DNA from: a virus
Taxonomy: Duplodnaviria; Heunggongvirae; Uroviricota; Caudoviricetes
DNA length: 47,073 nucleotides
IMG/VR virus record: IMGVR_UViG_2534682139_000016
Coordinates: 1 to 47,073 of that record
Reading direction: 5' to 3' (one strand)
Shown: positions 1 to 47,073 of the stretch, piece after piece
Position numbering within the stretch: the first letter of the stretch is position 1
Layout of the letters: each line of letters opens with the position of its first letter
The notes under the pieces: model-generated
The model's database searches: none
Seen by the model: the letters and a program-made list of their open reading frames with translations, nothing else
What the model was told of the DNA's origin: nothing
Program-made: the position numbers and the translations under genes

Positions 1-39
1 ATGGCGCTCATAAATCTGGTATACTTACCTTTACACATT

Positions 40-402
40 GGGGCTGATTCTGGATTCGACGGGATTTGCGAAACCCAAGGTGCATGCCGAGGGGCGGTTG
101 GCCTCGTAAAAAGCCGCAAAAAATAGTCGCAAACGACGAAAACTACGCTTTAGCAGCTTAATAACCTGCTTAGAGCCCTCTCTCCCTAGCCTCCGCTCTT
201 AGGACGGGGATCAAGAGAGGTCAAACCCAAAAGAGATCGCGTGGAAGCCCTGCCTGGGGTTGAAGCGTTAAAACTTAATCAGGCTAGTTTGTTAGTGGCG
301 TGTCCGTCCGCAGCTGGCAAGCGAATGTAAAGACTGACTAAGCATGTAGTACCGAGGATGTAGGAATTTCGGACGCGGGTTCAACTCCCGCCAGCTCCAC
401 CA
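40..402 (+). ncRNA. ssrA: tmRNA (SsrA), full length ~363 nt
   Basis: Starts GGGGCTGATTCTGGATTCGACGGG; contains tag-peptide ORF GCAAACGACGAAAACTACGCTTTAGCAGCTTAATAA (ANDENYALAA*) at 131-166; ends with tRNA-like acceptor arm GGTTCAACTCCCGCCAGCTCCACCA. Confidence 0.95.
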
Positions 403-530
403 ATCATGATTGGACGGTGTAAGGACAACACCAACAAAAACAGGAAGTTAGCAGTCTCAGCAGGACACCGACCAGACGGTGAGGAGATAAAAAAGGATAC
501 GCAAAGGAGCCGTGGCTCTCGAGTGACACA

Positions 531-560
531 AAAGCCCGCTTATGCGGGCTTTTTGTTTTT
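531..560 (+). terminator. Rho-independent terminator-like hairpin (AAGCCCGC-TTAT-GCGGGCTT followed by TTTTGTTTTT)
   Basis: GC stem-loop followed by T-run, between ssrA and the first cargo gene. Confidence 0.55.
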
Positions 561-630
561 CCCTTAAGTTCCTAGCCTCTTATCTATAACTATGGAAAAA
601 TGTTAACCCTGACTGTATGTTAACAAAGGG

Positions 631-1845
631 ATGTATATGTCGGTTTTTCATAACTGGCTGCTTGATATCGCAAGCGGGAATTACTTTATCTACATCAAAC
701 GCCTTTCTGCAAACGACACAGGCGCAACAGGTGGCCATCAGGTCGGACTTTATATCCCCTCAAATATCGTTGAAAAGCTTTTTCCATCTATCAATCATAC
801 TCGCGAACTGAACCCTTCAGTCTTCCTTACTGCGCATGTATCATCCCATGATTGCCCTGATACCCAAGCACGCGCAATTTATTACAACAACCGTTATTTT
901 GGTAAGACCCGAAACGAAAAAAGAATTACGCGCTGGGGGAGAGGAAGTCCATTACAGAACCCTGAAAATACAGGAGCCCTCACAATTCTTGCTTTCAGGT
1001 TAAACGAACAGAACACTGACTGTTCCGAGGTAGATATATGGGTCTGCGTCAATCCCGATGAAGAGGATATCATCGAGTCTGCTATTGGCGAAATCATACC
1101 TGGAACCCTAATTTCCGGCCCTGCCGGACAAATTTTGGGCGGATTGTCTCTTCAGCAAACTCCAGTAAATCATAAATATGTTATTCCTGAAGACTGGAAG
1201 AAGCGTTTTCCTTCTGGAAACGAAATTATTCAATATGCTGCTGGCCATTATGCTAAAAACTCCAAGGATCCAGATGAGCAACTGATTGACCGTCGGCGTG
1301 TCGAGTATGATATTTTTCTACTCGTCGAGGAATTACATGTTATTGATATTATTAAGAAAGGATTCGATTCTGTAGATGAGTTTATTGCATTAGCCAACTC
1401 TGTCAGTAATCGACGTAAATCAAGGGCAGGCAAATCACTTGAACTTCACCTAGAGAAGCTTTTTATCGAGCACGGACTACGGCATTTCTCCACTCAGGCA
1501 GTTACTGAAGGTAATAAAAAACCAGATTTCCTGTTTCCTTCAGCAGAGGCATATCATAACGTTGAATTTCCTGTAGAAAACTTACGTATGCTGGCAGTAA
1601 AGACCACCTGCAAAGATCGCTGGCGTCAGATACTGAATGAAGCAGATAAAATCCATCAGGTACATTTATTTACACTGCAAGAAGGTGTTTCTTCAGCACA
1701 ATACCGAGAAATGAAAGATGCGGGTGTCAGACTCGTTGTACCATCAACTTTACATAAAAAATACCCAGAAGCAGTTAGAGAAGAATTAATAACGCTCGGA
1801 GCATTCATTACTGAGCTGATAGAGCTTTACGCTGAACTATCATAG
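631..1845 (+). CDS. ecoRIIR: Type IIE restriction endonuclease, EcoRII-like (CCWGG)
   Basis: 404-aa ORF; N-terminus MSVFHNWLL...YIKRLSANDTGATGGHQVGLYIPS and overall sequence match my recollection of R.EcoRII; AGGGA Shine-Dalgarno 7 nt upstream; convergent with a C5-methyltransferase gene. Confidence 0.85.
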   Translation: MYMSVFHNWLLDIASGNYFIYIKRLSANDTGATGGHQVGLYIPSNIVEKLFPSINHTRELNPSVFLTAHVSSHDCPDTQARAIYYNNRYFGKTRNEKRITRWGRGSPLQNPENTGALTILAFRLNEQNTDCSEVDIWVCVNPDEEDIIESAIGEIIPGTLISGPAGQILGGLSLQQTPVNHKYVIPEDWKKRFPSGNEIIQYAAGHYAKNSKDPDEQLIDRRRVEYDIFLLVEELHVIDIIKKGFDSVDEFIALANSVSNRRKSRAGKSLELHLEKLFIEHGLRHFSTQAVTEGNKKPDFLFPSAEAYHNVEFPVENLRMLAVKTTCKDRWRQILNEADKIHQVHLFTLQEGVSSAQYREMKDAGVRLVVPSTLHKKYPEAVREELITLGAFITELIELYAELS

Positions 1846-1848
1846 GCT

Positions 1849-1871
1849 GACTCCCGGCTTAAAAGGCCGGG
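1849..1871. terminator. Hairpin between convergent R and M genes (CTCCCGGC-N7-GCCGGGAG), possible bidirectional terminator
   Basis: 8-bp perfect GC-rich inverted repeat in the 34-bp gap between the two convergent stop codons; no clear U-tract. Confidence 0.4.
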
Positions 1872-1879
1872 AGATGTTC

Positions 1880-3313
1880 TCAAGGCTGCCCAGTCTTACC
1901 AGCATCAGCAGAAACAGCTTTGAGGATATAGGGTTCCAGAAGTCTGGCAACAGCTTCAAATACTGGCACCACAACTGAGTTACCGAACTGCCGATATGAC
2001 TGAGTATCTGAAACCGGAATACGGAATGGTTTCCCTCCAGGTTTTTCAAATCCCATAAGGCGTGCGCACTCTCGGGGAGTCAGCCTGCGTGGTCGACGAG
2101 CCTGATTACTCTCATTCATAAAGTCAGCCTCTCCCGTTGCCATATCCCAACCACGATCAATAAGAATTTCTGATCCGTCTTTGTGATATCTGGCAGAAAG
2201 TGTGCGTGCAATGCTTTCCTTATTCTCAGGATTGACCAACCCAAAGCCAAAACCATTCCCCTTGGCTGCATGCTTTTTGGCGTAGTTATAAAGGTACTCC
2301 CATAGTTTTGGCGTAAGTATATATTTACTGTCGACTACAGGCTCCAGCAATTCACCAAATGATGGGCGGTGTTCCGGATAAAAACGACTGATATCACGCA
2401 AGGTAAACCCCTTGTGAATATTCAGATCTCGTCTAAATCCGACCAGAACAATGCGTTCACGATGCTGAGGCAAAAAATGCTTCCCATCGATAATCTTTGG
2501 ATCGTTTTTTCCCATTTCTGCAGCATCGGCAACTTCGTAGCCCAGCTCGTCAAGGGTCTCCATAATGACTTTGAAAGTTTTACCCTTATCATGGCTCTTC
2601 AGATTTTTGACATTTTCCAGCACAAAAATTGCCGGTTTTTTTGCTCGTATAATACGTGCCACGTCAAAAAAAAGTGTTCCTTGTGCTTCACATTCAAAAC
2701 CATGCGCACGACCAAGTGAGTTTTTCTTACTAACACCAGCAAGGCTAAATGGCTGGCACGGGAACCCCGCAAGAAGCACATCATGATCCGGCACATGCTC
2801 ATCAATATATGCATAAGCATCCGTTTCCAATACATCGGTTTTATCACTCAGCGTGACTTCCCGAATATCGAGATTGAATTTATGCACCTGTTCATCGTTA
2901 AACCAGTTGGCCTTGTATGTACGCACAGCATCTTTATTCCATTCACTGGTAAAAACACACTGGCCTCCAATGGCCTCAAAACCTTTCCGTATCCCTCCAA
3001 TTCCAGCAAATAAGTCAATGAAGCGGAAAGCATATTCCGGATGGTTTGCAGGTGGTTCTGGTAGCATCTTACGCAGAAGAGACTCTTCTACTGAAGTCAA
3101 CGATTTTGGTAAACACTTGCCATTAATCCAGCGGTTAATGGTTTCACGGCTCCACTCATTTTTTCCGACTTTTCTCAGTAATTCAGCCACATACTTCTGA
3201 TCATAGATTTCCAGCACTTTCTCGATAAGCTTTTTATCATTTTCCTGTCGCAGCTTTTCTTCCGCCTCGGCTTCCTTCAGCAGATGCTGTGCCAACACTT
3301 CAAATTCAGACAT
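1880..3313 (-). CDS. ecoRIIM: DNA (cytosine-5) methyltransferase, M.EcoRII/Dcm-like
   Basis: Motifs [10 protein letters not shown] (AdoMet binding), GFPCQPFS (catalytic PC), ENVKNL; start placed at MSEFEVL (3313) because GGAGG lies 4 nt upstream, giving 477 aa; ORF track extends to 3355. Confidence 0.9.
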
Positions 3314-3674
3314 AATTCCTCCAAGGGGTCTAATGGGTGAAACTTTATCACTCATTCAACCCAGAAGGAAATGTTTTATCTGGATATTTAAACAGTGACT
3401 ACAACGTAATCTAGCACTGGTGATGCTTTGTTAGGCATAGAGAATCATTCTATATACGACTAATGACAGAAAAACAGCAGACAAGTAGTTTGTTCATAAA
3501 TTAACGCATACTATGTGTCTACGGTTTTCGAGACCGGTCCAATCATCAAACGAAACATAAAATTAGCTCACATTATGAGGAAAAGTATCTTTTTTGTACT
3601 ATGTAAATTCAAAGGCTTAGCCTCATTTCTCCGATGGTTTTCTCAACACTACTGGTTGTGAGCCCTTGCAATGA

Positions 3675-4493
<819 letters not shown>

Positions 4494-4550: not shown

Positions 4551-5105
4551 TCATTTATCTCCGACCGAAAACTTCTTATACAGTGTCGATATACCAACAT
4601 CATAGATGATCGCCACCTTCTGGCGAGGAACGCCTGATGCAATTAATCGCCCAGCCTGCGCCCATTGTTCTGGTGTAAGTTTGGGACGACGTCCACCAAT
4701 TCGTCCCTGTGCGCGAGCAGCTTCCAGTCCAGCTTTTGTTCGTTCAACAATCAGTTCTCGTTCCATTTCAGCCAGGGCACCCATCACATGAAAGAAAAAA
4801 CGCCCCATCGGTGTGCTGGTATCAATAGCATCCGTCAGGCTGCGAAAATTAACGCCACGTTCGCGCAACTCCTCAACCAGAATGACCAGATGCCGCATAC
4901 TACGCCCCAGCCGATCCAGCTTCCAGACAACCAGAGTGTCACCTTCCGATAATGTCCTGAGCAGTTTTTTCAGTCCCGGCCTTTCAGACTTTGTACCGCT
5001 TATCTTGTCTTCAAAAATCAGCTCGCATCCTGCACAGTTCAGCGCATTACGCTGTAGATCTGTGTTCTGGTCATTTGTTGACACACGTACATAGCCAATA
5101 AGCAT
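4551..5105 (-). CDS. pin: Serine recombinase, DNA invertase of the Pin/Gin/Hin/Cin family
   Basis: MLIGYVRVSTNDQNTDLQ... catalytic Ser motif; near-identical from memory to e14 Pin; adjacent to tail-fibre genes flanked by inverted crossover sites. Confidence 0.9.
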   Translation of the reverse strand: MLIGYVRVSTNDQNTDLQRNALNCAGCELIFEDKISGTKSERPGLKKLLRTLSEGDTLVVWKLDRLGRSMRHLVILVEELRERGVNFRSLTDAIDTSTPMGRFFFHVMGALAEMERELIVERTKAGLEAARAQGRIGGRRPKLTPEQWAQAGRLIASGVPRQKVAIIYDVGISTLYKKFSVGDK

Positions 5106-5131
5106 GGTAGATCTCCCTGACAAAAGCAGGA

Positions 5132-5533
5132 ATGATGCCATTTGCTCGTTATTTCTGCATTTTCATAAACGTTGGTTTGGGAGAAGCGGCGAAAAGGGAT
5201 GTAGGCACAGGAGAAAATCAGATACCGGATATGTCAGCCTGGAAAAGAAATCCGAGTTCTAATCGCTGGAGAAAATTGCCTGATGGAACCATCATTCAAA
5301 TGGGAATATCAGCATCAGGGCCATTAGGCTCACCTGTAAATATCACCCTGCCGATATCTTTCAGCAATACCAATTATTGTGTTGTTGCATCGTACGATAA
5401 TGCACGGTCAGGTGTGTCAACAATGGTTAGTTTTGCAGCATTACCTGTTTCACCATCGCAATTTTCCCTGATGTCATCTGTGACTGAGCAAGGAATAAAT
5501 CCTTTTGCTTACTGGATTGCTTTTGGAGATTGA
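5132..5533 (+). CDS. Alternative tail-fibre C-terminal variable segment (silent orientation; expressed only after inversion)
   Basis: ORF reads through the left crossover site encoding ...VGLGE, the same junction peptide (NLGLGE) found in the minus-strand tail-fibre gene; ends next to an oppositely oriented tail-fibre assembly gene. Confidence 0.55.
   Translation: MMPFARYFCIFINVGLGEAAKRDVGTGENQIPDMSAWKRNPSSNRWRKLPDGTIIQMGISASGPLGSPVNITLPISFSNTNYCVVASYDNARSGVSTMVSFAALPVSPSQFSLMSSVTEQGINPFAYWIAFGD
5160..5185. repeat. Invertase crossover site (gix/hix-like), left copy
   Basis: TTTTCATAAACGTTGGTTTGGGAGAA; its reverse complement TTCTCCCAAACCAACGTTT matches 19 of 20 nt of the site at 6965-6990; resembles hix/gix consensus TTxxxxAAACCxxGGTTTxxxxAA. 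Confidence 0.8.
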
Positions 5534-5536
5534 TAA

Positions 5537-5956
5537 ATGGACAGATACTTCTATTCACAAAAAGAAAATGGTTTTTTTACCGATTTAAATAAAGCACCTT
5601 CAGATGCTGTTGAGATAACCACGGATGAATGGCTGTCACTACTGGATGGTCAGGATAATGGCATGAAAATAGTCAGCAATCAGGAGGGATATCCGGTTTT
5701 GACAGAGCAACCACCTTTATCAAAAGAAAACCTTATTGCATTGGCAGAGTTGAAAAAAGGAAAACTTATTAATGAAGCCAACGAGCACATGAACAGCAGG
5801 CAATGGCCTGGTAAAGCGGCTATTGGTCGTCTGAAAGGTGAGGAACTGGCGCAATATAATTTGTGGCTGGATTATCTGGACGCACTGGAGCTGGTCGATA
5901 CTTCCAGTGCGCCAGATATTGAATGGCCTACGCCTCCGGCAGTTCAGGCCAGATGA
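5537..5956 (+). CDS. Tail fibre assembly protein (alternative copy inside the invertible segment)
   Basis: 139 aa; C-terminus ...SSAPDIEWPTPPA parallels ...STAPDIIWPELPEA of the convergent copy; typical Tfa/U-like size. Confidence 0.7.
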   Translation: MDRYFYSQKENGFFTDLNKAPSDAVEITTDEWLSLLDGQDNGMKIVSNQEGYPVLTEQPPLSKENLIALAELKKGKLINEANEHMNSRQWPGKAAIGRLKGEELAQYNLWLDYLDALELVDTSSAPDIEWPTPPAVQAR

Positions 5957-6521
5957 TATCCGGCGCGGTGCTGGTATCTGTTACCGTCACCGCGTCAATG
6001 TAATCCAGCACGGCGTTAAGTCGGGTTGTTTCTGCCTGCGTCAGTTTCCGTCCGGCCTGCAATTTCAGTTGAATCAGACTAATGGAAGCCATTACAGTAT
6101 CAATCAGTGACTGACGTTGTGCTTCTGCCGCGTCTACTGCGGCGCTATGCTGTGCCTCGGTATCCGTCACCCATTTCTCACCATCCCATTTATCGTATGG
6201 CGTTAACGGTGAAAGCGTGACATAACCGTCTTTGATGGCACCGATATAATCCACTGTAACAGCTGCGCCATTTTCTGTTGAGTAAACAGTCTCATTGCGA
6301 TGGTCTTCTTCATGGCTCCATCCCTTACCCGTAAATACTGCCACTTTTCCCGGAATGTTTTCGCCAGGGTCAATACCAGTGGAACAGGCGGGCATACTTA
6401 CGCCAGTATTAATATATTCATCAGACCAGCCCGTATACTCAGATGTTTCAGCATCATAATAAAAACAACGCATATCGCCCGGCACTGTAGCCAGCCCATT
6501 TTCATCAAAAACAGGTTTCAT
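5928..6521 (-). CDS. Tail fibre assembly protein (currently expressed orientation)
   Basis: 197 aa immediately downstream of the tail-fibre gene; convergent and overlapping 29 nt with the alternative copy. Confidence 0.75.
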   Translation of the reverse strand: MKPVFDENGLATVPGDMRCFYYDAETSEYTGWSDEYINTGVSMPACSTGIDPGENIPGKVAVFTGKGWSHEEDHRNETVYSTENGAAVTVDYIGAIKDGYVTLSPLTPYDKWDGEKWVTDTEAQHSAAVDAAEAQRQSLIDTVMASISLIQLKLQAGRKLTQAETTRLNAVLDYIDAVTVTDTSTAPDIIWPELPEA

Positions 6522-7267
6522 TATTTAGCCCTCACCAGAAAGTTAAATGCAATATTTCGCGGTCTGACAGCAACAAAATTCACACCATCACCCACAGAGT
6601 TACTGGTGAAATTAAATCGTGAAAATCCTGGCTGATTTCCGGCGATGCCATCATGAAAGTTAATTGCGTGTCCCGCACCTTCGCCTATATTCCCGGCAAA
6701 CTGAGAAAAGTTTGTAGCTGCCTGCCAGCTTAATAATTCACGACCACCATCTGCACCTCGCCCGTCATCCCAGATACGAATGAAATCACCGCGGGCTTCA
6801 GGTAATACCAGCGAAGGAAACACTTTCGCCAGCACAGGATAATCAGTGGCAGAGAATTTCGCGCCGTTGAACTTCAAAAACACCATACTGGACCAGCTGT
6901 CGATTACAGTATTTGGCATTGCAGCGGACGGCCAGAAGAACGGAACGCCAATAGCTGGAGAACCTTCTCCCAAACCAAGGTTTTCGAGAGCCGTTTTCAC
7001 CGTGCCATCCGATTTGATATCACCAAACGGATTCTTGCGGCTTAACAGCAGCGCACGAAGCGCGGTAAGCAGCTGGTCGTGCCGCCCCTTCTCCAGGCTG
7101 GCACCGGACGCCTCCACAACGCTGCAAAGCTCCTCCTGCAACATGTCAAAGTAGTCATCATCCAGATCGGTGGCAGGCGTGCCGGTCTGGGGGTTACCAC
7201 GGGTAAAACCGTTCTTACCCGCGCCGAACTTATCCTTCTGCGCGGTTTTCGTGTCTATACGATGCAT
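6521..7267 (-). CDS. Tail fibre protein (constant N-terminal part 6978-7267 fused to variable part 6521-6977)
   Basis: [21 protein letters not shown]... N-terminus typical of Mu S-like fibres; the right crossover site lies inside the gene at the constant/variable junction. Confidence 0.75.
6965..6990. repeat. Invertase crossover site (gix/hix-like), right copy
   Basis: TTCTCCCAAACCAAGGTTTTCGAGAG, inverted relative to 5160-5185. Confidence 0.8.
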
Positions 7268-27019: not shown

Positions 27020-28195
27020 ATGGATATAACTTGTTTAGAATGTGGCAATGTTCTTGACGACCCAACTGTAGCTTGCGATAAATGCGGTGCCACGCCTCAT
27101 GTTGTAGTGCTGGGCAAACAATCGTACTTTCCTATTGGTGCTGTAACAGCAAATCTTGAAAAAAATGATTCAAGAGCATTTGATTATCGATTAGGTGAAG
27201 TTTGGGATCTAAAAAATGAAGTCACATCTGAATTCATAACCAGAATTGAGAAAAAATTTAGCCGAAAAAACAAATTTCATAACTTCCTAGACTCAGATCA
27301 CAACCCTTCATCCATTCCTACGATCCTAAAAAAATACATTAATAAAAATAATGAATTCATTGATTTATCTAGAGCTATAATAGAGAAGCTTAAACATAAT
27401 GCTAATAACGAATCGAGAGTTGCCCAACTTCAGGGGGGGAGCGTTGTTTTCATCCACTATAAGTCTACCGAACCAGAGGATTTGGGGAAACTTCTAATCG
27501 TAATGGTTGATAAACAAAGCGCCTATGACTTTGATTCGGATAAGTTGACCCCAACAAGATTAAATCCAATTAATACCGATGCCTTACGGCAGGCTGCGAT
27601 GTTCGATTTAACTTTATTCGAAGCCAGTTATCCAGAAAACAAGGGTGACTCATATGTACATTTCTTGCAAGGTAAATCTAAAAGCGATTTTTTCAAAGAC
27701 TCATTAGGTTGCCGACATGATTCGGACAATAAAAGAAGCATTCAGCAATTATTCAGTGCTATAGATATTTTTGCTAGTAAAAACTCACTCGGTCGTGTAC
27801 TGCGTGATACTATTGACAATGAAGTTAAATCCTTACTGGAAAAAAAATCAAAAGATAAACACGGAAATAAGTCCGTTAAGATAGAGGATATTTCAAAAAT
27901 AATTGACTCATGCCTGACTGATTCACACAAATGTAAGGGAACGTTTGTCGATTTTGTTAATCTTAATGGTTTCCAGATTGACCCTCAATTTGAACCAACT
28001 CCTAAAGCAGCTGAAAGCGCGCTTACAATTGAAGTGGCAGATAACGACAATAATTTTAAGTTGAAAATAATGCGTGGAGCTATTGGAGACGAAAAGTCAA
28101 ATAAGCCTGTAATTCTCACTGACAACAAATGCGAAATTGTGATAAAATTGAGTCAGGCAAATTATGATGAACTCAAAAGATATAGAGACAGCTAA
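27020..28195 (+). CDS. Zinc-ribbon protein with NA37/YejK-like nucleic-acid-binding region (cargo gene 1)
   Basis: 391 aa; N-terminal CLECG...CDKCG zinc ribbon; central GGSVVFIHY...LLIVMVD...YVHFLQGKS...DFFKDSLG resembles the nucleoid-associated NA37 family from memory; AT-rich; TATAAT at 27002-27007. Confidence 0.7.
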   Translation: MDITCLECGNVLDDPTVACDKCGATPHVVVLGKQSYFPIGAVTANLEKNDSRAFDYRLGEVWDLKNEVTSEFITRIEKKFSRKNKFHNFLDSDHNPSSIPTILKKYINKNNEFIDLSRAIIEKLKHNANNESRVAQLQGGSVVFIHYKSTEPEDLGKLLIVMVDKQSAYDFDSDKLTPTRLNPINTDALRQAAMFDLTLFEASYPENKGDSYVHFLQGKSKSDFFKDSLGCRHDSDNKRSIQQLFSAIDIFASKNSLGRVLRDTIDNEVKSLLEKKSKDKHGNKSVKIEDISKIIDSCLTDSHKCKGTFVDFVNLNGFQIDPQFEPTPKAAESALTIEVADNDNNFKLKIMRGAIGDEKSNKPVILTDNKCEIVIKLSQANYDELKRYRDS

Positions 28196-28197
28196 TA

Positions 28198-29412
28198 ATG
28201 ACAATTGCTGATGACTTATCAAGATTAGCGCAGATTATTAACGGAGCCTCAAGCAGAGTTGAGGGCTACTACACTGTCATAAGTCTTGAAGAAAGCATTG
28301 TTATTGTAAATAGTTCTGAAATAATTAGACTGTTACAATCTATAGGTTATAAAAAGGCAACAACCTGCATCGAAAATAATGAAATTTGGCTAGATCGCCA
28401 AGCTTCATCTTGGGATGACGCTATAATTTATGAGAATGTTGAGTCTTTTTGGTCTAGAGTAAACACCCAAAACGCTCTTCCGAAAAATTATATCATCGGA
28501 ACGCCGTTAATACTCCCTACTTCTAAGAATGAAAGCATCGAAAAAATCCATATTTTCTTTATGTGGAAAGATATCCTTTCATTAATTGCTGATCATCATA
28601 ACAGTGACTGCTCTGTCTTATTTTTCACCAATGAAGACAAAAGTTATACAGTCGAACTCACGCATTTTTTACAATATAGCGAGATTAATCGCTTATCGAA
28701 CTCGTCTCTTAAATATGAAATTATAAAGGAGCTTCTCGACACAATAAAAATCAATGATTTACACAAAAGCGAGCGCAAGCTCGTTATACGCTCAGCCATA
28801 AACGAAGTATTTAAAGCAAATGGTACGTTCAATTTCTTTGACTTGCTTAACTCTACTGAACTCGTCAGGAAAAAATATGATGAACTATATGAGATTTACA
28901 CAAAGAGGTTTTCTGTAAATAAAATTCTTAACGAACTCGATGAGAAAAATCTTGAGTTCACGAGTAAAATTAACGAATTCATATCATCTAATCAGACAAA
29001 AGCATTGACTATTCCCGGTGCATTAATAGCTGCTGGTGGCTTAGTGAAGGCTAATGAAACAACCGAAGCAATATTGATTATCGCAGGACTTTGGATGATA
29101 AAAAAAGTCAATTACATTTCTATTGAGATATTCAATGAAACATTCGACAACTTACGTTCTCGAGTGGAGTCCGCTTTCGATAAGTATTTAAAGTTTGAAG
29201 AAAATAAAGAAATCAAAGATAATGCAGATAGTATTAAGAGTAGCATTACAGGTTTGATTGATAAAGCTAAAAAAAGGATGAGAACTGTTAAATATCTCGC
29301 ATCAGCCATGTTTTATGGAGGCCTTATTTACGTTGGATATAAACAGTTCCCAGTCTTTTTTGAAAAATCGGCAGTAAATCTATTTTATTTTTTATGCCAT
29401 ACTATAAGCTAA
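28198..29412 (+). CDS. Hypothetical protein with C-terminal hydrophobic helices (cargo gene 2)
   Basis: 404 aa; start 2 nt after gene 1 stop; hydrophobic stretches ALTIPGALIAAGGLV and YLASAMFYGGLIYVGY. Confidence 0.7.
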   Translation: MTIADDLSRLAQIINGASSRVEGYYTVISLEESIVIVNSSEIIRLLQSIGYKKATTCIENNEIWLDRQASSWDDAIIYENVESFWSRVNTQNALPKNYIIGTPLILPTSKNESIEKIHIFFMWKDILSLIADHHNSDCSVLFFTNEDKSYTVELTHFLQYSEINRLSNSSLKYEIIKELLDTIKINDLHKSERKLVIRSAINEVFKANGTFNFFDLLNSTELVRKKYDELYEIYTKRFSVNKILNELDEKNLEFTSKINEFISSNQTKALTIPGALIAAGGLVKANETTEAILIIAGLWMIKKVNYISIEIFNETFDNLRSRVESAFDKYLKFEENKEIKDNADSIKSSITGLIDKAKKRMRTVKYLASAMFYGGLIYVGYKQFPVFFEKSAVNLFYFLCHTIS

Positions 29413-31969: not shown

Positions 31970-32292
31970 ACTTTCAGGCCCCTCTCATGTAACCAGTGGG
32001 CTGCACGCAGCCTGGCGTTTTCCTCACCGACAAGCAGTGAGCGGATAATCCCGACCGCCTCGCTGTCGTCGTCCTTCACCGCGGTATGAAGCGTGATGCC
32101 CCGGGCCACGCCACGCTTTATCGTGATGACGCCTTTTTTCTCCAGTGCGCGAAGATGTTCTACCGCTGCATTCACTGAACGGTATCCCAGCATGGTTGCC
32201 ACCTCCTGATTGGTTGGCGGGAAGCCACGTTCTTTCTGATAAGAAATCAGCATATCCAGCACCTGCTGCTGGCATTGAGTTAACGTCGTCAT
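31966..32292 (-). CDS. LexA-N-like winged-helix DNA-binding protein
   Basis: ...LTQCQQQVLDMLISYQKERGFPPTNQEVATMLGYRSVNAAVEHLRALEKKGVI... parallels the LexA N-terminal domain. Confidence 0.65.
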   Translation of the reverse strand: MTTLTQCQQQVLDMLISYQKERGFPPTNQEVATMLGYRSVNAAVEHLRALEKKGVITIKRGVARGITLHTAVKDDDSEAVGIIRSLLVGEENARLRAAHWLHERGLKV

Positions 32293-32942
32293 GCCACCAT
32301 CTCCCTGACCAGTTTTTCTGCCTGCTGGCGAACCTGCGCCAGAAAGGCCTCACCACATGCCTCAAGTTCATCGCGCCCGATGTAGCTGATTGCCGGTCCC
32401 TTCCAGGTCTTGTCGAAAACAGCAATAGCACCAGCGAAGAAAGCGCCTGTCGGCACCTGCTTCTCATCCTTCGGGATAAACCAGGCAGGCAGTTCAAAAC
32501 CGATACGCCCGCGAATAAAAGCAATATGATCTGCATCTTCCGGCCACCACACTTCGCTGGTGGCAGCTTTGATCAGGAAAACATAGCGCCCACCTTTATC
32601 ACGCATGGCACTGGCATGCTTCATGATGTAACGCATGCCTGTGATGTATTGCCCCTCATGCTGACTGGCGCGGCTGTATGGGGGATTACCAAAGGCAGCA
32701 CCTTTAAGCTCCGCAAGACGTTCTGACCAGTCATGCGCCAGCGCGTTGTCTTCCGCCGTGTAATACGCGGCACATTTGGCGTTATCACCGTCAGTGAACA
32801 GATCCAGAACAAACGGGCCAAACAGGGTGTTAATTCCCCAGAAAATGTTATCCGGCGTGCGCCACTGATCGCCCACTTCCTTCAGTTCATGGGCTGGTTT
32901 GTTCCGCAGTTCCACCAGCGCCTGGCAATATTTATTACTCAT
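32289..32942 (-). CDS. Phage DNA N6-adenine methyltransferase (orphan)
   Basis: NPPY motif (AFGNPPYSRASQ); start chosen at MSNKYCQ where ATG overlaps the upstream stop (TAATG); ORF track extends to 32975. Confidence 0.75.
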   Translation of the reverse strand: MSNKYCQALVELRNKPAHELKEVGDQWRTPDNIFWGINTLFGPFVLDLFTDGDNAKCAAYYTAEDNALAHDWSERLAELKGAAFGNPPYSRASQHEGQYITGMRYIMKHASAMRDKGGRYVFLIKAATSEVWWPEDADHIAFIRGRIGFELPAWFIPKDEKQVPTGAFFAGAIAVFDKTWKGPAISYIGRDELEACGEAFLAQVRQQAEKLVREMVA

Positions 32943-41448: not shown

Positions 41449-42300
41449 ATGACTACACCAGTAATAAGTTTCATAAATATGAAAGGTGGGGTTGGTAAAA
41501 CAACTTTATGCGTCGGCATTGCTGAATATCTTGCAAACTTCATGGATAAAAAGGTATTAATTATCGATATTGACCCACAATTTAACGCTACACAGTCAAT
41601 ACTTAGTAAATATGATCGAGTGAAAGAGTATATAGCTGATCACTTAGAAAATACAAAAACCATCAGACGAATATTCGAGACAAAATCAAGCTTAACGGGT
41701 AAAGTTCAGCAGGTCACTCCTGATGAAATTATCATCAAGATGTCAGAGCACTTAGATATGATTTTTGGTGATATTAATACAATATTTGATATTGAACAAC
41801 CTGCGGCAAGATTACATAAGCTAAAACGCTTTATAGAAGAACATAAGCTTCGAGATATATATGACTTCATTTTGATCGATAGCCCACCAACCATTTCATT
41901 ATTTACTGATGCAGCTCTCGTTGCTTCAGATTATTATATTGTGCCAGTTAAAATTGACCACTACTCAATTTTAGGTGCGACAAGTCTTTTAAGCGTAATA
42001 GAAAACATTCAAGATAATTATGACCATAAAAACATTCAAAACCTTGGTTTTATTTATACTAATACCCTAGAAAATCTATCAAAAAAGACAAAAAAGCTAA
42101 AGACAGACTTTGAAAGTACTGAACCTTTTAATGAACTATACTTTTTTGATAACCAGTTGAAGTTTGTACAGGATTTGATGGTGGGTGGTAGAGGTAATAT
42201 ATCATCAAGTTATAAATCATCCAGAAAATATATCAAAGCGATTTGTGAAGAGTTTTTAAGTCGGATCCAAGAAGTGCAAACGGGGGGGGAAGATGAATAA
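41449..42300 (+). CDS. ParA/MinD-superfamily ATPase (cargo gene A)
   Basis: Deviant Walker A MKGGVGKTT at residues 11-19; Walker B-like LIDSPP; AT-rich; GAGGG RBS. Confidence 0.8.
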   Translation: MTTPVISFINMKGGVGKTTLCVGIAEYLANFMDKKVLIIDIDPQFNATQSILSKYDRVKEYIADHLENTKTIRRIFETKSSLTGKVQQVTPDEIIIKMSEHLDMIFGDINTIFDIEQPAARLHKLKRFIEEHKLRDIYDFILIDSPPTISLFTDAALVASDYYIVPVKIDHYSILGATSLLSVIENIQDNYDHKNIQNLGFIYTNTLENLSKKTKKLKTDFESTEPFNELYFFDNQLKFVQDLMVGGRGNISSSYKSSRKYIKAICEEFLSRIQEVQTGGEDE

Positions 42301-42706
42301 AAATAGTAACAACCTCGAATTATTACAGACATTGGTTTATAAGAAGCCCTCGTCAAAAGAAGCGTTTATTGGTTTGATAACAATAGCAATCTATTCTAGG
42401 GAAATTTTTGTTAAAAATGAAGATGCAGCAGAATTCGTAAAAAATGTATTTGGATTAAGTTTCTTAGACTACGTCATCAAGTCAAGAACTTTATTATGCG
42501 CTAGACTTACCCGTAATCTTGTAAATATGAGCGAGAGAGACATTAAAGAATGCATATATAAAGCATCAGAGTATTTTAAAACTGACAAATTTATTATTGG
42601 ATATAATGAAAACTCACTTACTTTTAAAAAAAGTAACGTCAAACGTAATGCAAATCGAGATGTAGGTACGTGGATTAATGCTCTTTTGAAGAAGGATAGA
42701 AAATAA
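42293..42706 (+). CDS. Hypothetical protein (cargo gene B)
   Basis: 137 aa; start overlaps the ParA-like gene by 8 nt. Confidence 0.6.
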   Translation: MNKNSNNLELLQTLVYKKPSSKEAFIGLITIAIYSREIFVKNEDAAEFVKNVFGLSFLDYVIKSRTLLCARLTRNLVNMSERDIKECIYKASEYFKTDKFIIGYNENSLTFKKSNVKRNANRDVGTWINALLKKDRK

Positions 42707-43371
42707 TGCTTCAAAGAGACCCACATGGATTTAGAAAAGACGTGAAAGAATTTATCACAATGATAAAATCATTTCAGGTCGATATTCGCACCGAAAACAA
42801 TCTTACATCGGCTTATAAACATGTACTTTTTCTGGAGTTTATCCATAACTCACATCCAGAAATAAGTCACAAAACCTTTATAAAAAGTATTATTTATGAT
42901 GTTTTAAGTTCAATTACAGCGATACTTCATAAACGAGAGCGATATCTTCATCTTAATTTTCGCTCAATGATTGAACATCTTGCACGTATATCCTTACAAA
43001 AAGTTGATAACGGGGGGGATTTCGATATTACAATTAGAACTCTTGATTTCGAGAATCTTAAATCTACCAACACTGATGAAAACTGGGCGTACATGCATTC
43101 ACAGTATAAACAAGCATGTGGCTGGTTACACTCATCATCTAAAGTTAAATTAAATATCACAGCATCATTTCCAGATTTATTAAAGTCTGATTCAAAAAGT
43201 AATGCAGCTAAACTGTCAACCCATTTGCAAAAGATGACTACCGAAATGTTAAAGATTTTTTTTAACTACTATGTTGATGAGATTCAAACTTCTTTTTACC
43301 GCACACGGGGAGAAATGAGGTATGTGCTTGGCAACCATAACTTCGAATATTTTTTAAGCAAGAATCCATAA
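42706..43371 (+). CDS. Hypothetical protein with possible HEPN-like Rx4H motif (cargo gene C)
   Basis: 221 aa; TAATG overlap with gene B; motif RSMIEH. Confidence 0.6.
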   Translation: MLQRDPHGFRKDVKEFITMIKSFQVDIRTENNLTSAYKHVLFLEFIHNSHPEISHKTFIKSIIYDVLSSITAILHKRERYLHLNFRSMIEHLARISLQKVDNGGDFDITIRTLDFENLKSTNTDENWAYMHSQYKQACGWLHSSSKVKLNITASFPDLLKSDSKSNAAKLSTHLQKMTTEMLKIFFNYYVDEIQTSFYRTRGEMRYVLGNHNFEYFLSKNP

Positions 43372-43461: not shown

Positions 43462-43492
43462 GGACGCTGGTTCAACTCCCGCCAGCTCCACC
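43462..43492 (+). repeat. Direct repeat of ssrA 3' end (att site)
   Basis: GGACGCTGGTTCAACTCCCGCCAGCTCCACCA matches 372-402 with one mismatch. Confidence 0.85.
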
Positions 43493-43658
43493 ACTTTTTA
43501 GTTGTTTGAAGTTCAATGAAGTCTACTAAGCCCACACAGCACAAGCTCTGCGGGCTTTTTTACGTCTATTGTCGTCCAGTGAGAATTGCTGAGAACTACG
43601 AGTTATGGCACCCTGAATGGGACCCACTAAGAAGGGTCCAAAAACCGAGGGTCCCAAA

Positions 43659-44888
43659 ATGGCAAAAATCGCTAAGAAGCTCACTGACACTGAAATCAAA
43701 AGCACCAAGCCAGCCGATAAAGAAATCAACTTGTTTGACAGTGATGGTCTGATTCTACGAATCGCTCCTTTGGCGAAAGGAGGCAAGAAAAATTGGTATT
43801 TCAGGTATGCAGTACCAGTGAGCAAGAAAAGAACCAAAATGAGCCTTGGGACATATCCTCACCTTACCCTTGCAAGAGCCAGAGCCTTACGTGATGAATA
43901 TCTCTCCTTTCTGGCAAATGGTGTTGATCCCCAAATCCATAACAACGATAAGGCGAAGGCATTAAAGAGTGCTACTGAGCACACTCTCCAAGCCGTAGCG
44001 CGGAAATGGTTAGATGAGAAGGTAAAGACATCAGGTATCTCACAAGACCATGCAGCAGACATCTGGCGCAGCTTAGAGAGAAATGTCTTTCCCGGTCTGG
44101 GTAATGTCCCTATCAATGAGATCCGACCTAAGCTCTTAAAACAACACCTTGATCCTATTGAGCAACGAGGCGTATTGGAAACTCTACGCCGTATCATTTC
44201 ACGTCTGAATGAAATCTTCCGGTGGGCAGCTACTGAAGAACTTATTGAGTTCAACCCGGCTGACAACCTTGGTCAAAGATTCAGTAAACCAAAAAAGCAA
44301 AATATGCCTGCCCTTCCCCCAAGCGAATTGCCAAGGTTTATGGAATCTTTGACGAATGCGTCAATCCGGTTGGAAACACGTATGCTAATTGAATGGCAAT
44401 TGTTGACATGGGTTCGTCCGGGTGAAGCCGTTCGCGCAAGGTGGTCTGATATTGATACAACCAACAGCATTTGGAACATTCCTGCTGATTTCATGAAAAT
44501 GAAAAAGCTTCACAAAGTTCCTTTGAGTAAAGAAGCTTTGCGCATCCTTGAATTAATGAAATCAATAAGTGGGCATAGAGAATGGGTTTTCCCCAGCATA
44601 AAAGCGCCTCTTAATCATATGCATGAACAAACAGCCAACGCAGCTATCATCCGAATGGGGTTCGGAGGCGAGCTTGTAGCTCACGGTATGCGTTCTATTG
44701 CACGAACAGCGGCAGAGGAGTCTGGTAAATTCAGAGCTGAAGTTCTTGAGGCAGCGCTTGCCCACTCGAAAAAAGATGAAATTATCGCAGCATACAATCG
44801 TGCAGAATATCTGATAGAGCGACAGAGTTTGATGCAATGGTGGAGTGATTACGTTCAAGCTCAAAGATCAAATGCTCTGGTAGCCTAA
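43659..44888 (+). CDS. P4-type (IntA-like) tyrosine integrase
   Basis: MAKIAKKLTDTEIKSTKP... and ...DIWRSLER...MQWWSDY... parallel CP4-57 IntA from memory; begins ~166 bp after the ssrA fragment. Confidence 0.85.
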   Translation: MAKIAKKLTDTEIKSTKPADKEINLFDSDGLILRIAPLAKGGKKNWYFRYAVPVSKKRTKMSLGTYPHLTLARARALRDEYLSFLANGVDPQIHNNDKAKALKSATEHTLQAVARKWLDEKVKTSGISQDHAADIWRSLERNVFPGLGNVPINEIRPKLLKQHLDPIEQRGVLETLRRIISRLNEIFRWAATEELIEFNPADNLGQRFSKPKKQNMPALPPSELPRFMESLTNASIRLETRMLIEWQLLTWVRPGEAVRARWSDIDTTNSIWNIPADFMKMKKLHKVPLSKEALRILELMKSISGHREWVFPSIKAPLNHMHEQTANAAIIRMGFGGELVAHGMRSIARTAAEESGKFRAEVLEAALAHSKKDEIIAAYNRAEYLIERQSLMQWWSDYVQAQRSNALVA

Positions 44889-44926
44889 GTATCAGAATAG
44901 CTAATATAATCCTGAAGGTAAAGAAA

Positions 44927-45343
44927 ATGGAAACCCTATTCAAAGTTTTTGAAAAATTTAGTTCCAGACCACTTTTTTTTATTTTTTTCGGACTCTCACT
45001 TTGTGAATTTTTTCAGAAACAATCTGTTCTGATGAATCCATCAGCAGATAACATCGCGAAATTATTCGCAGCCATGATATTAGTTGTTTTTTTTACTTGG
45101 GGATTTGAATGGCTAATCTTCAAGTTCAATGTAAACCTTGAACCTCATGATCAAGGCGATATTGGACCAACAATTGGAACGGCTACTTTAGCTGTATACT
45201 TAGTTTATGCCTTTCACTTTCTCAGTGAAAATCCTGAAGCATTAAATTTAAAGTTATTAACTAACTCTGGCTTTATATACAGCACAACTCTATTATTATT
45301 CTCATTAGAATGCATGAAGCTTAGAAGACTTAAACAAAAATAA
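44927..45343 (+). CDS. Hypothetical polytopic membrane protein
   Basis: 138 aa, 3-4 hydrophobic helices, AT-rich. Confidence 0.45.
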   Translation: METLFKVFEKFSSRPLFFIFFGLSLCEFFQKQSVLMNPSADNIAKLFAAMILVVFFTWGFEWLIFKFNVNLEPHDQGDIGPTIGTATLAVYLVYAFHFLSENPEALNLKLLTNSGFIYSTTLLLFSLECMKLRRLKQK

Positions 45344-45415
45344 ACAACATCATTGTGATGATAAATATAAAATAGGCATGGCGAAAAAAAAATCACCACG
45401 CCTAAAATATAATAA

Positions 45416-45739
45416 TTATGGTAGCATCATTGATACATAATCCACACCAATCCTTGAGCTATACTGAGACGCTATAGCCTGATATCTTTCTGCATAACCA
45501 GTTCTCAGTTGAGATTTAAGTTTGAGTCGGACAGGAACATTTTGCACGTTGCCATCCATATTACTTAAAAACACGGCAGAAATAATATTTTTTTCTTCGC
45601 CATCAACTGTTGTTCCATGATTCAACACCACCATATAATCAACAACAGGAAGCGTTTTATCCCCTTCGAAAATAGAGAGATATTTTCTTTGATTTTTATG
45701 CATTACATATATATATTTCGAATGTTCAGCAAATGGCAA
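45416..45739 (-). CDS. Hypothetical protein, possibly 5'-truncated by the IS insertion
   Basis: Open frame continues upstream of the first Met to the IS left end at 45806. Confidence 0.35.
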   Translation of the reverse strand: MPFAEHSKYIYVMHKNQRKYLSIFEGDKTLPVVDYMVVLNHGTTVDGEEKNIISAVFLSNMDGNVQNVPVRLKLKSQLRTGYAERYQAIASQYSSRIGVDYVSMMLP

Positions 45740-45859
45740 TGCTTTACTCTGACTGGCGTTAAAAAGCTCCAGAACTTTAATGAGCCTGTGCGGACTTAAT
45801 CTTACTGAACCGCCCCGGAAATCCTGGAGACTAAACTCCCTGAGAAAGAGGTAAACAGG

Positions 45860-46186
45860 ATGACTAAAAATACTCGTTTTTCCCCCGAAGTCCGTCAGCG
45901 GGCGATTCGTATGGTTCTGGAAAGTCAGGATGAATATGACTCACAGTGGGCGGCAATTTGTTCCATTGCCCCAAAGATTGGCTGTACGCCGGAGACTCTG
46001 CGTGTCTGGGTTCGCCAGCATGAGCGGGATACCGGGAGTGGTGATGGTGGACTCACCACCGCTGAACGTCAGCGTCTGAAAGAGCTGGAACGTGAAAATC
46101 GTGAACTGCGCCGCAGTAACGATATCCTTCGCCAGGCTTCCGCTTATTTTGCGAAGGCGGAGTTCGACCGCCTCTGGAAAAAATAA
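45860..46186 (+). CDS. IS3-family transposase OrfA (HTH)
   Basis: [21 protein letters not shown]... leucine-zipper C-terminus. Confidence 0.9.
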
Positions 46187-47073
46187 TGCCACTGCTGGAT
46201 AAGCTGCGTGAGCAGTACGGGGTCGGACCGGTATGCAGCGAACTGCATATTGCCCCGTCAACGTATTACCATTGTCAGCAACAGCGACATCATCCGGATA
46301 AACGCAGTGCCCGTGCGCAGCACGATGACTGGCTGAAGAAAGAGATACAGCGCGTATACGATGAAAATCACCAGGTATACGGTGTGCGTAAAGTCTGGCG
46401 TCAGTTGTTACGGGAAGGTATCAGAGTGGCCAGATGCACTGTGGCACGTCTCATGGCAGTTATGGGACTTGCCGGTGTTCTCCGGGGTAAAAAGGTCCGC
46501 ACTACCGTCAGCCGGAAAGCCGTTGCCGCATGCGACCGCGTAAACCGTCAGTTCGTGGCAGAACGTCCAGACCAGTTGTGGGTGGCTGATTTTACCTGGG
46601 TAAGCACATGGCAGGGCTTCGTTTATGTGGCGTTCATCATTGATGTGTTCGCCGGATACATCGTGGGATGGCAGGTCTCATCATCCATGGAAACAACATT
46701 CGTGCTGGATGCACTGGAGCAGGCGTTGTGGGCCCGTCGGCCGTCCGGCACAATCCATCACAGTGATAAAGGTTCTCAGTATGTATCGCTGGCCTACACG
46801 CAGCGGCTTAAGGAAGCCGGATTACTGGCATCAACAGGGAGTACTGGCGACTCGTATGACAACGCGATGGCTGAGAGCATCAATGGTCTTTACAAAGCGG
46901 AGGTAATACACCGTAAGAGCTGGAAAAACCGGACAGAAGTGGAACAGGCCACACTAACGTGGGTGGACTGGTATAACAATCGACGATTGCTGGAAAGGCT
47001 GGGCCATATTCCTCCGGCAGAAGCAGAAAAAGCTTATTATGCTTCCATCGGAAATAATGATCTGGCAGCCTGA
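46186..47073 (+). CDS. IS3-family transposase OrfB (DDE catalytic domain)
   Basis: -1 frame relative to OrfA with A-run (GGAAAAAATAATG) at the junction; DDE region ...HSDKGSQYVS... Confidence 0.9.
   Translation: MPLLDKLREQYGVGPVCSELHIAPSTYYHCQQQRHHPDKRSARAQHDDWLKKEIQRVYDENHQVYGVRKVWRQLLREGIRVARCTVARLMAVMGLAGVLRGKKVRTTVSRKAVAACDRVNRQFVAERPDQLWVADFTWVSTWQGFVYVAFIIDVFAGYIVGWQVSSSMETTFVLDALEQALWARRPSGTIHHSDKGSQYVSLAYTQRLKEAGLLASTGSTGDSYDNAMAESINGLYKAEVIHRKSWKNRTEVEQATLTWVDWYNNRRLLERLGHIPPAEAEKAYYASIGNNDLAA

Follow-up and report, generated by a model that had tools for sequence, protein, structure and literature searches.

The question raised by this locus is whether the restriction-modification (R-M) pair that lies next to ssrA is an intact EcoRII-type system carried by a prophage, and what such a pair could do in a host that also has Dcm. 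The window, i.e., the whole stretch of 47,073 nucleotides of viral DNA that was analyzed, contained the convergent restriction (R) and methyltransferase (M) genes with a hairpin in the gap between them, as the preliminary description had reported (Table 1). The locus is very probably an intact Type IIE R-M system of the EcoRII family, carried as moron cargo by a 43-kb SfV/e14-like temperate phage at the 3' end of ssrA. The R start lies 229–235 bp past the end of ssrA, depending on whether the ORF start at 631 or the RefSeq start at 637 (402 aa) is used. The M ORF is open from 3355 down to 1880 on the minus strand; its real start, in a GGAGGAATT-ATG context, is at 3313, and no Shine-Dalgarno sequence precedes the alternative upstream ATG at 3355.

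Table 1. Positions of the R-M pair, its neighbors and the prophage junctions in the window.
Feature	Position	Strand	Description
ssrA (tmRNA)	40..402	+	bacterial integration target; ARAGORN, tag ANDENYALAA; RefSeq
att core copy 1, GGTTCAACTCCCGCCAGCTCCACCA	378..402	+	last 25 nt of ssrA; prophage junction adjoining the R-M pair
Phage-derived P' arm	403..630	+	rho-independent terminator (530–553) with T-run, replacing the native ssrA terminator
R gene	631..1845	+	EcoRII-family Type IIE restriction endonuclease; ORF of 404 aa
GC-rich hairpin	1851..1873	.	in the 34-bp gap (1846–1879); stems CTCCCGGCTT/AAGGCCGGGAG
M gene	1880..3313	-	EcoRII/Dcm-type C5-cytosine methyltransferase, 477 aa, N-terminal DNA_meth_N domain
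M upstream region	3314..3395	-	putative promoter/operator; conserved; imperfect palindrome GTGATAAAGTTTCAC (3337–3351) and GGAGG Shine-Dalgarno
PD-T4-3/CMoRE defence gene	3720..4493	+	GIY-YIG Type IV endonuclease; divergent from M
pin-type serine invertase	4551..5141	-	Pfam Resolvase and HTH_7; RefSeq pinE CDS 4551–5105, 184 aa
att core copy 2	43469..43493	+	displaced original ssrA 3' end; exact 25-bp direct repeat of 378–402

R aligned end to end and without gaps to crystallized EcoRII (PDB 1NA6; 85.9% identity, E 5.7e-243), and PADLOC assigned it to REase_II (771 bits). Both halves of the two-domain enzyme were recovered by Pfam far beyond chance, namely EcoRII-N (residues 18–165, E 3.9e-61) and EcoRII-C (residues 229–393, E 3.6e-71), with a B3-like effector domain at the N-terminus and a PD-(D/E)XK catalytic domain at the C-terminus. 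All 27 of the published catalytic and DNA-contact residues (Golovenko, 2009; PMC2770665) were identical to those of EcoRII, including the four active-site residues (E271, D299, K324, and E337), the CC:GG readout residues (K328-D329-R330 and N260), the pocket for flipping of the central base (R222, E225, Y226, F229, R265, and A266), and the CCWGG contacts of the effector domain (N28, H36, Q37, Y41, R81, Y85, K92, T93, R94, E96, R98, T100, and R101). Position 88 is the wild-type Arg, whereas 1NA6 is the R88A mutant. The exact alignment to EcoRII was free of gaps and frameshifts, and every known functional residue was unchanged, so that none of the inactivating defects raised in the preliminary description was present. 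By analogy with the family, R would be autoinhibited and would cleave before the first C, with a need for at least two unmethylated CCWGG sites.

M was 90.6% identical to the plasmid EcoRII methylase without gaps, and across residues 201–400, a closely similar target-recognition region, the identity was 95–100%. It contained the C5-methyltransferase motifs DLFAGIGG (residue 100), PCQ (residue 185, with Cys186 as the catalytic residue), and ENV (residue 233), and Pfam identified DNA_meth_N (E 7e-27) and DNA_methylase far beyond chance. The identity of 86–91% of the two proteins, together with the conserved contact residues, points to a CCWGG specificity of the pair; these matches bear out its earlier assignment as a complete EcoRII-type system. 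As in other members of its family, M is predicted to methylate the inner C of CCWGG and to repress its own promoter via the N-terminal domain. M.EcoRII represses its own expression (PMC12707154), and by this analogy the N-terminal domain of M may act as the repressor and the region upstream of M as its operator. This region is the only flank that was conserved with plasmid EcoRII, and homology stopped at 3395.

The hairpin between the two genes folded with −18.1 kcal/mol as a 34-mer and with −20.4 kcal/mol (z = −2.6) in a 55-nt context. It was not called in the terminator scan because no T-run follows it. The CTCCCGG/CCGGGAG stem was also found in the 33-bp gap of plasmid EcoRII, where the flanks and the loop differ, and the hairpin is probably a bidirectional 3'-end or terminator element. 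On the R side, homology to plasmid EcoRII began only at 585. No convincing sigma-70 promoter for R was detected in the 77 bp that separate its start codon from the ssrA terminator; a sigma-70 scan for R and M gave counts at background, with zero sites upstream of R. Only a weak −10-like TATAAC was observed at 585–590, where the aligned plasmid EcoRII has TATAAT, and expression of R in the lysogen is therefore putative.

The lack of a clear R promoter, the strong terminator just upstream, and the redundancy of M with Dcm would suit a silent or decaying passenger, in which the genes are intact by recency only, R is silent or inactive, and the pair amounts to a second Dcm-like methylase. On the other hand, dN/dS against the plasmid allele was 0.05 for R and 0.033 for M over a deep divergence (dS about 1.6), which indicates strong purifying selection on both genes since their split from that allele. 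Furthermore, all functional residues of R are kept. An identical full-length R protein, annotated as a type II restriction endonuclease, is encoded by at least 1000 contigs and recurs in 3749 blocks of the collection, with two prophage backbones that are unrelated to each other. A passenger of this kind is very improbable.

The placement of the pair as phage cargo is supported by the att repeats and by contigs with an attP-type junction. The 25-bp ssrA repeats bound a 43-kb prophage with a structural core that is 97–98% identical to Shigella phages SfI/SfII/SfV, and past the second att copy lie the native terminator of ssrA and another integrase, which is a remnant. The arm between ssrA and R was common to a circular phage contig (CT01), to contig L004, and to lambda-like ssrA prophages, and it matched phages LLS and Ayreon at 89%. 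The 43.7-kb CT01 contig has the order tail fibre, CMoRE, M, R, attP-like core, DinI, and int, and in L004 the R-M pair adjoins an attP-type junction with the exact ssrA core. The preliminary description had called the pair ssrA prophage cargo next to attL. The pair is indeed enclosed by the 25-bp att repeats and adjoins the junction. Only the name of the junction differs, as the R-M pair lies on the side away from int, towards the tail fibre (the 'b-region' side). By the lambda convention, the junction distal to int is attR.

An R-M segment (6–3536) that recurs at ssrA with 99.9% identity ahead of two prophage types that are unrelated, and a GC content of the pair (0.43–0.45) below that of the phage core (0.55), could also be read as an independent, ssrA-linked islet that is not part of the prophage. 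However, a repeat search of the window found no further att copy that would separate the pair from the phage genes, both CT01 and L004 place the pair directly beside the P-core-P' junction of attP type, and low GC is typical of morons. A separate islet was thus rejected as most improbable. The same module was found at ssrA in SfV-like and in lambda-like prophages, and 10 of 10 sampled places were beside smpB-ssrA.

Within the phage, the R-M pair fills a slot that has attP on one side and the tail-fibre genes on the other; SfI/SfII/SfV have gtrABC there, and e14 has mcrA. The SfV-family and e14 phages share the lineage and the same slot between attP and the tail-fibre/pin genes, but their cargo consists of O-antigen glucosylation genes or McrA and they integrate at thrW or icd, whereas this phage carries a Type II R-M system with CMoRE and integrates at ssrA. 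The CMoRE gene had been overlooked in the preliminary description, which also overrated the novelty of the locus. It was identified over its full length as PD-T4-3 by PADLOC (E 4.7e-140), and its product is about 98% identical to the crystallized O157:H7 protein (PDB 9U75; a further structure on record is 9U7U). This identification ruled out the GIY-YIG neighbor as a Vsr-like repair partner of M. CMoRE is a Type IV enzyme that depends on hmC or glucosyl-hmC DNA (PMC12923530). Because CMoRE adjoins M, the three genes form a small defence cassette. CMoRE is no part of the R-M pair; it is more widespread (822 genomes compared with 377 for the pair) and also occurs in its absence, e.g., in O157:H7 PA20. 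PADLOC and Pfam gave zero defence assignments for the other low-GC cargo genes.

In a lysogen, the pair and CMoRE would therefore act as a defence cassette of two gene systems, in which the EcoRII-type R would attack DNA with unmodified CCWGG, CMoRE would attack T-even-type hypermodified DNA (hmC or glucosyl-hmC), and 5mC would mark self, with the chromosome protected twice, by M and by Dcm. The prophage itself showed no avoidance of CCWGG (82 observed vs. 72 expected), and its self-protection must therefore come from methylation. The cassette may go further and act as one coordinated 'cytosine-state' unit of defence that recombination has spread among different ssrA-integrating phages and in which R cuts unmodified CCWGG, CMoRE cuts hmC and glucosyl-hmC, 5mC marks self, and expression of R might depend on integration. 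This is a speculative and rather unlikely extension. The dependence on integration is suggested by an R gene that has no recognizable promoter of its own and comes to lie 229 bp past the end of ssrA, which is transcribed very strongly; with read-through of the ssrA terminator, R could switch on only after lysogeny has been established. If true, no C protein would be needed to solve the establishment problem.

The reach of such a defence depends on the host. Intact dcm-vsr is present at the canonical locus in the genome that matches the window at 100% identity, and a dcm-like gene was present in 5367 of 5426 E. coli genomes. Host Dcm has the same predicted target as M (inner C of CCWGG), shares the DNA_meth_N domain, and is 68% identical to it; the Dcm methylase is an orphan with the Vsr repair nuclease at yedJ-yedA, whereas the partner of M is a restriction enzyme and no vsr accompanies it. 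EcoRII failed to restrict plasmids from dcm+ E. coli donors (PMC11602122). The earlier proposal that the pair restricts incoming phage thus holds in a narrower form, as with Dcm present, restriction reaches only DNA that arrives un- or under-methylated at CCWGG. With Dcm in nearly every E. coli, it is not obvious what selective advantage R confers.

The same evidence bears on the proposal that the pair is an addiction module that mainly stabilizes the prophage by post-segregational killing. EcoRII on plasmids does kill after its loss in permissive hosts, but Dcm, which methylates the same sites, attenuates this killing (PMC3874152; PMC11602122). The pair does lie at the extreme end of an element that can excise; however, addiction requires a host without another isospecific methylase, and here one is present, so that the chromosome would stay protected after loss of the prophage. 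The intact dcm-vsr and the published effects of Dcm therefore weaken the addiction claim, which we consider unlikely, and leave the defence narrow. With a doubly protected chromosome, gain or loss of the prophage would be harmless; resident Dcm thus neutralizes the cost of such systems together with much of their benefit.

Host methylation is also relevant to use of the pair in the lytic cycle, in which R would degrade host or competitor DNA and M would protect the progeny, as proposed for Burkholderia phage KL3 (PMC3091744). The module does lie within the packaged or excised genome, but the E. coli chromosome is methylated by Dcm and would therefore be resistant to R during lytic growth, and a slot near att, beside CMoRE and with a putative M promoter of its own, fits cargo that is expressed in the lysogen, such as gtr and mcrA. 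A lytic weapon is accordingly quite improbable, and lysogen-expressed cargo is the preferred reading.

The EcoRII-type pair is already known and catalogued in hundreds of genomes; the phage-type module occurred in 377 of 5426 complete E. coli genomes (approximately 7%), including O103:H2 and O121 STEC, and the locus matters little beyond annotation. A literature search for a prophage-borne EcoRII allele or a link between EcoRII and ssrA returned nothing relevant. The closest relative is plasmid EcoRII of N3/R46-type conjugative plasmids (PDB 1NA6, 3HQF, and 3HQG), which likewise has a two-domain Type IIE R and a C5-methylase of 477 aa whose N-terminal domain is regulatory. The convergent order, the hairpin stem in a gap of 33–34 bp, and the conserved stretch of about 80 bp upstream of M are also shared. 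The two differ in sequence (86% and 91% amino-acid identity for R and M, about 80% at the nucleotide level) and in carrier, which is here an attP-adjacent phage slot and not a plasmid, and beyond approximately 46 bp upstream of R the DNA is unrelated (phage P' arm and ssrA terminator). A diverged allele of the plasmid EcoRII family thus rides in ssrA prophages of the SfV/e14 and lambda types, where it occupies the slot for lysogenic conversion. Methylome and phage host-range work should allow for strains in which two CCWGG methylases occur together with a CCWGG endonuclease. Carriage of the module on a 30-kb 'plasmid' (NZ_CP104634.1) was rejected, as this record is made up of chromosomal genes with an attP-type junction and probably arose in assembly.

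The pair was absent at the DNA level from deposited phage genomes, and a protein search of 50,697 deposited phage records for an EcoRII-like R recovered only KL3, the one named, cultured phage with such an R, and two metagenomic fragments. KL3 also has a phage-borne CCWGG-type R-M module (EcoRII-C/Vsr/methylase), but its enzyme matches the catalytic domain only (residues 171–397, 39% identity) without an effector domain, the module includes Vsr, and KL3 is a P2-like phage of another genus. The two fragments are unannotated 'Bacteriophage sp.' faecal contigs of 6–7 kb, with 37–40% identity over most of R. On the far side of CMoRE, the pin-type invertase opens the phage tail-fibre module and controls an invertible segment (5167–6983) with 20-nt inverted repeats, which was found inverted in another genome.

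R and M, the endonuclease and C5-cytosine methyltransferase genes at the left end of the window, are both intact. R matched the Pfam families EcoRII-N (E 3.9e-61) and EcoRII-C (E 3.6e-71), and aligned end to end with the crystallised EcoRII (PDB 1NA6; E 5.7e-243) at 85.9% identity over 403 positions without gaps (effector domain, 85%; catalytic domain, 88%). Functional residues were taken from Golovenko et al. 2009 (PMC2770665), namely the active site (E271, D299, K324, and E337), the CC:GG readout residues (K328, D329, R330, and N260), the base-flipping pocket (R222, E225, Y226, F229, R265, and A266), and the effector-domain contacts (N28, H36, Q37, Y41, R81, Y85, K92, T93, R94, E96, R98, T100, and R101); all were identical in R. 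Position 88, which is mutated in 1NA6, is the wild-type Arg. M contained a DNA_meth_N and a C5-methylase domain (Pfam), with motifs I, IV (Cys186), and VI. The methylase of plasmid pACN001-A, whose partner endonuclease is 98.8% EcoRII, was used as its reference, and identity was 90.6% without gaps, reaching 95-100% across residues 201-400. The EcoRII-type pair proposed in the preliminary description was thus borne out by gap-free similarity to plasmid-type proteins and the retained functional residues, and this similarity argues strongly for CCWGG specificity. The dN/dS relative to the plasmid allele was 0.05 for R and 0.033 for M (dS ~1.6), indicating strong purifying selection on both genes since the alleles diverged.

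The two genes, their convergence, the 34-bp gap, and its hairpin were all present as first described, at the coordinates given.

Features of the window and their coordinates
Feature	Position	Strand	Remarks
ssrA (tmRNA gene)	40-402		opens the window
att copies (25-nt ssrA end)	378-402; 43469-43493		exact repeat
Phage-supplied terminator	530-563		+ strand; rho-independent, strong; hairpin 530-553
R ORF	631-1845	+	404 codons; RefSeq start 637
R-M gap	1846-1879		34 bp
Gap hairpin	1851-1873		GC-rich
M ORF	1880-3313	-	477 aa; annotated start 3313; convergent with R
Imperfect palindrome	3337-3351		GTGATAAAGTTTCAC
PD-T4-3/CMoRE gene	3720-4493	+	divergent from M; full-length PADLOC PD-T4-3 match, E 4.7e-140
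pin and invertible segment	4551-6983		RefSeq pinE CDS 4551-5105
Inverted repeats of segment	5167-5186; 6964-6983		20 nt
Two-gene insert	27020-29412	+	Q-to-holin interval; GC 0.34-0.36
N6-adenine methyltransferase	~32289-32942	-	RefSeq annotation
Phage integrase	40023-41198		
Gene trio	41449-43371	+	GC 0.31-0.35
Native ssrA terminator, displaced	~43549-43561		
P4/CP4-57-type integrase	43659-44888		then small ORF; region 43469-47072
IS3 element	~45858-47072		truncates adjoining genes

The M start is preceded by GGAGGAATT (GGAGGAATT-ATG), whereas no ribosome-binding site precedes the in-frame ATG at 3355. For the gap hairpin, the predicted folding energies were -18.1 kcal/mol (34-mer) and -20.4 kcal/mol (55-nt context; z = -2.6); no T-run was detected after it in the terminator scan, so it does not qualify as a canonical intrinsic terminator. 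The region homologous to plasmid EcoRII extends from 585 to 3395, comprising ~46 bp 5' of R, R, the gap, M, and ~82 bp 5' of M. The plasmid gap is 33 bp and keeps the stem CTCCCGG/CCGGGAG, but its loop and flanks differ. M.EcoRII represses its own gene via a fused repressor domain (PMC12707154), and the palindrome, located within the conserved stretch upstream of M, is a candidate operator at which the N-terminal domain of M may act likewise. Upstream of R, the sole promoter-like feature was TATAAC (585-590), aligned with TATAAT of the plasmid; no -35 element was evident there, and the promoter scan did not exceed background.

The window matches E. coli O103:H2 FWSEC0007 and other STEC chromosomes at 100% identity. 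A complete temperate phage lies between the 25-nt repeats, with genes for tail fibres and the pin invertase, a Mu-like baseplate and sheath, an HK97-type head, terminase, lysis, Q, replication, cI/cro, and int; Shigella phages SfI, SfII, SfIV, and SfV share its 17-kb structural core at 97-98% identity. Beyond the distal repeat come the native terminator of ssrA and a second integrase, which is a remnant. The RM pair is at the int-distal end, between the att junction and the tail-fibre/pin genes, and segment 403-630 is phage DNA. The corresponding slot is occupied by gtrA-gtrB-gtrI in SfI (attP to tail fibre) and by mcrA in K-12 e14 (order pinE-mcrA-attR), and is therefore the standard cargo slot of the lineage.

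No third att copy separates the RM pair from the phage genes. A circular "plasmid" of strain CT01 (NZ_CP081794.1; 43,671 bp) represents a whole phage genome, arranged as tail fibre, acyltransferase, CMoRE, M, R, ssrA-like core, DinI, and int, and is the excised attP configuration. In NZ_CP104634.1, a CT01-type P arm (phage sequence flanking the att core) runs into the exact ssrA core, which is followed by the P' arm and the RM pair. On these three observations, the pair is phage cargo, as had been claimed. The attP-type junction of CT01 (32189-32216) has a diverged, ssrA-like core that is 3 nt shorter (GCGGTCTCAACTCCGTCCCCCACCA); that of NZ_CP104634.1 (25679-25706) has the exact core and the CT01 P arm, on an otherwise chromosomal 30-kb "plasmid" contig that is likely a misassembly.

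Within the assembly collection, 3749 blocks contained the exact R protein. At the best 10 places of these, smpB-ssrA adjoined R in all 10; eight were in SfV-like prophages carrying CMoRE and pin, and two in lambda-like prophages (J-lom-stf), which are 99.9% identical to the window over 6-3536 and divergent beyond it. The integrases of the window and CT01 are only 22% identical and their P arms differ; therefore, the P' arm plus RM pair is a module common to several ssrA phages whose backbones differ, presumably spread by recombination.

The product of the neighbouring CMoRE gene is ~98% identical to PDB 9U75. CMoRE, a recently characterised GIY-YIG Type IV endonuclease, cleaves DNA containing 5hmC or glucosyl-5hmC and confers protection from T-even phages (PMC12923530). 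The att-proximal cargo therefore forms a defence cassette of two systems. In SfV-like prophages, CMoRE and the RM pair occur together, but CMoRE is commoner (822 vs. 377 of 5426 complete E. coli genomes, the latter being the phage-type RM module), and is also present without the pair, e.g., in O157:H7 PA20.

The prophage contains 82 CCWGG sites (~72 expected) and therefore relies on methylation rather than site avoidance. A genome identical to the window harbors intact dcm and vsr at yedJ-yedA, and a dcm-like gene was present in 5367 of the 5426 complete genomes; host Dcm and M are 68% identical. Because Dcm attenuates host killing after EcoRII loss (review, PMC3874152), the suggested role as an addiction module is unlikely in this host. 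The suggested restriction of incoming phage would hold only in part: 13 conjugative plasmids from dcm+ donors showed no EcoRII restriction, which appeared for most of them only with dcm- donors (PMC11602122), and defence would therefore be limited to DNA entering unmethylated or under-methylated at CCWGG. In the favoured model, the cassette probably serves as defence cargo expressed in the lysogen, harmless to gain or lose because of Dcm, with hypermodified phages covered by the adjoining CMoRE. Gene integrity, family membership, cargo position, and host dcm are observed parts of this model, and specificity, expression, autoregulation, and the restriction phenotype are predicted ones.

Identification of the RM pair was correct but is unremarkable. 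Prophages are well known to carry Type II RM systems, and EcoRII is a textbook enzyme. RefSeq already lists the exact R and M, as "type II restriction endonuclease" and "DNA cytosine methyltransferase", on at least 1000 contigs, and PADLOC models recognise R, M, and CMoRE. The literature search found no paper on the EcoRII allele of this prophage or its pairing with CMoRE, and no deposited phage genome carrying the RM module was found; among phages, the closest precedent is Burkholderia phage KL3, whose EcoRII-C/Vsr/methylase module lacks the effector domain.

Other loci were also observed. The phage-supplied terminator directly follows the reconstituted ssrA and replaces the native one. Beyond the displaced ssrA 3' end, the second integrase and IS3-truncated genes are the remnant of an older ssrA island, and the site is thus occupied in tandem. 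The tail-fibre segment was in the opposite orientation in another compared genome (L009), so the pin switch appears active. The insert between the antiterminator gene Q and the holin gene encodes an NA37 nucleoid-associated-protein homologue (391 aa) and a 404-aa protein without a match in Pfam and PADLOC scans, and could represent a moron or a defence locus; CT01 has a serine protease at the equivalent position. The trio between the integrase and the distal att copy encodes a ParA/AAA_31 ATPase and two proteins that matched no family and gave only a weak PADLOC hit (PDC-M28B, 2e-7); this second att-flanking cargo slot is analogous to lit/ymfD/ymfE of e14. The orphan phage N6-adenine methyltransferase likely has an anti-restriction function, and with M the prophage therefore carries two DNA methylases.
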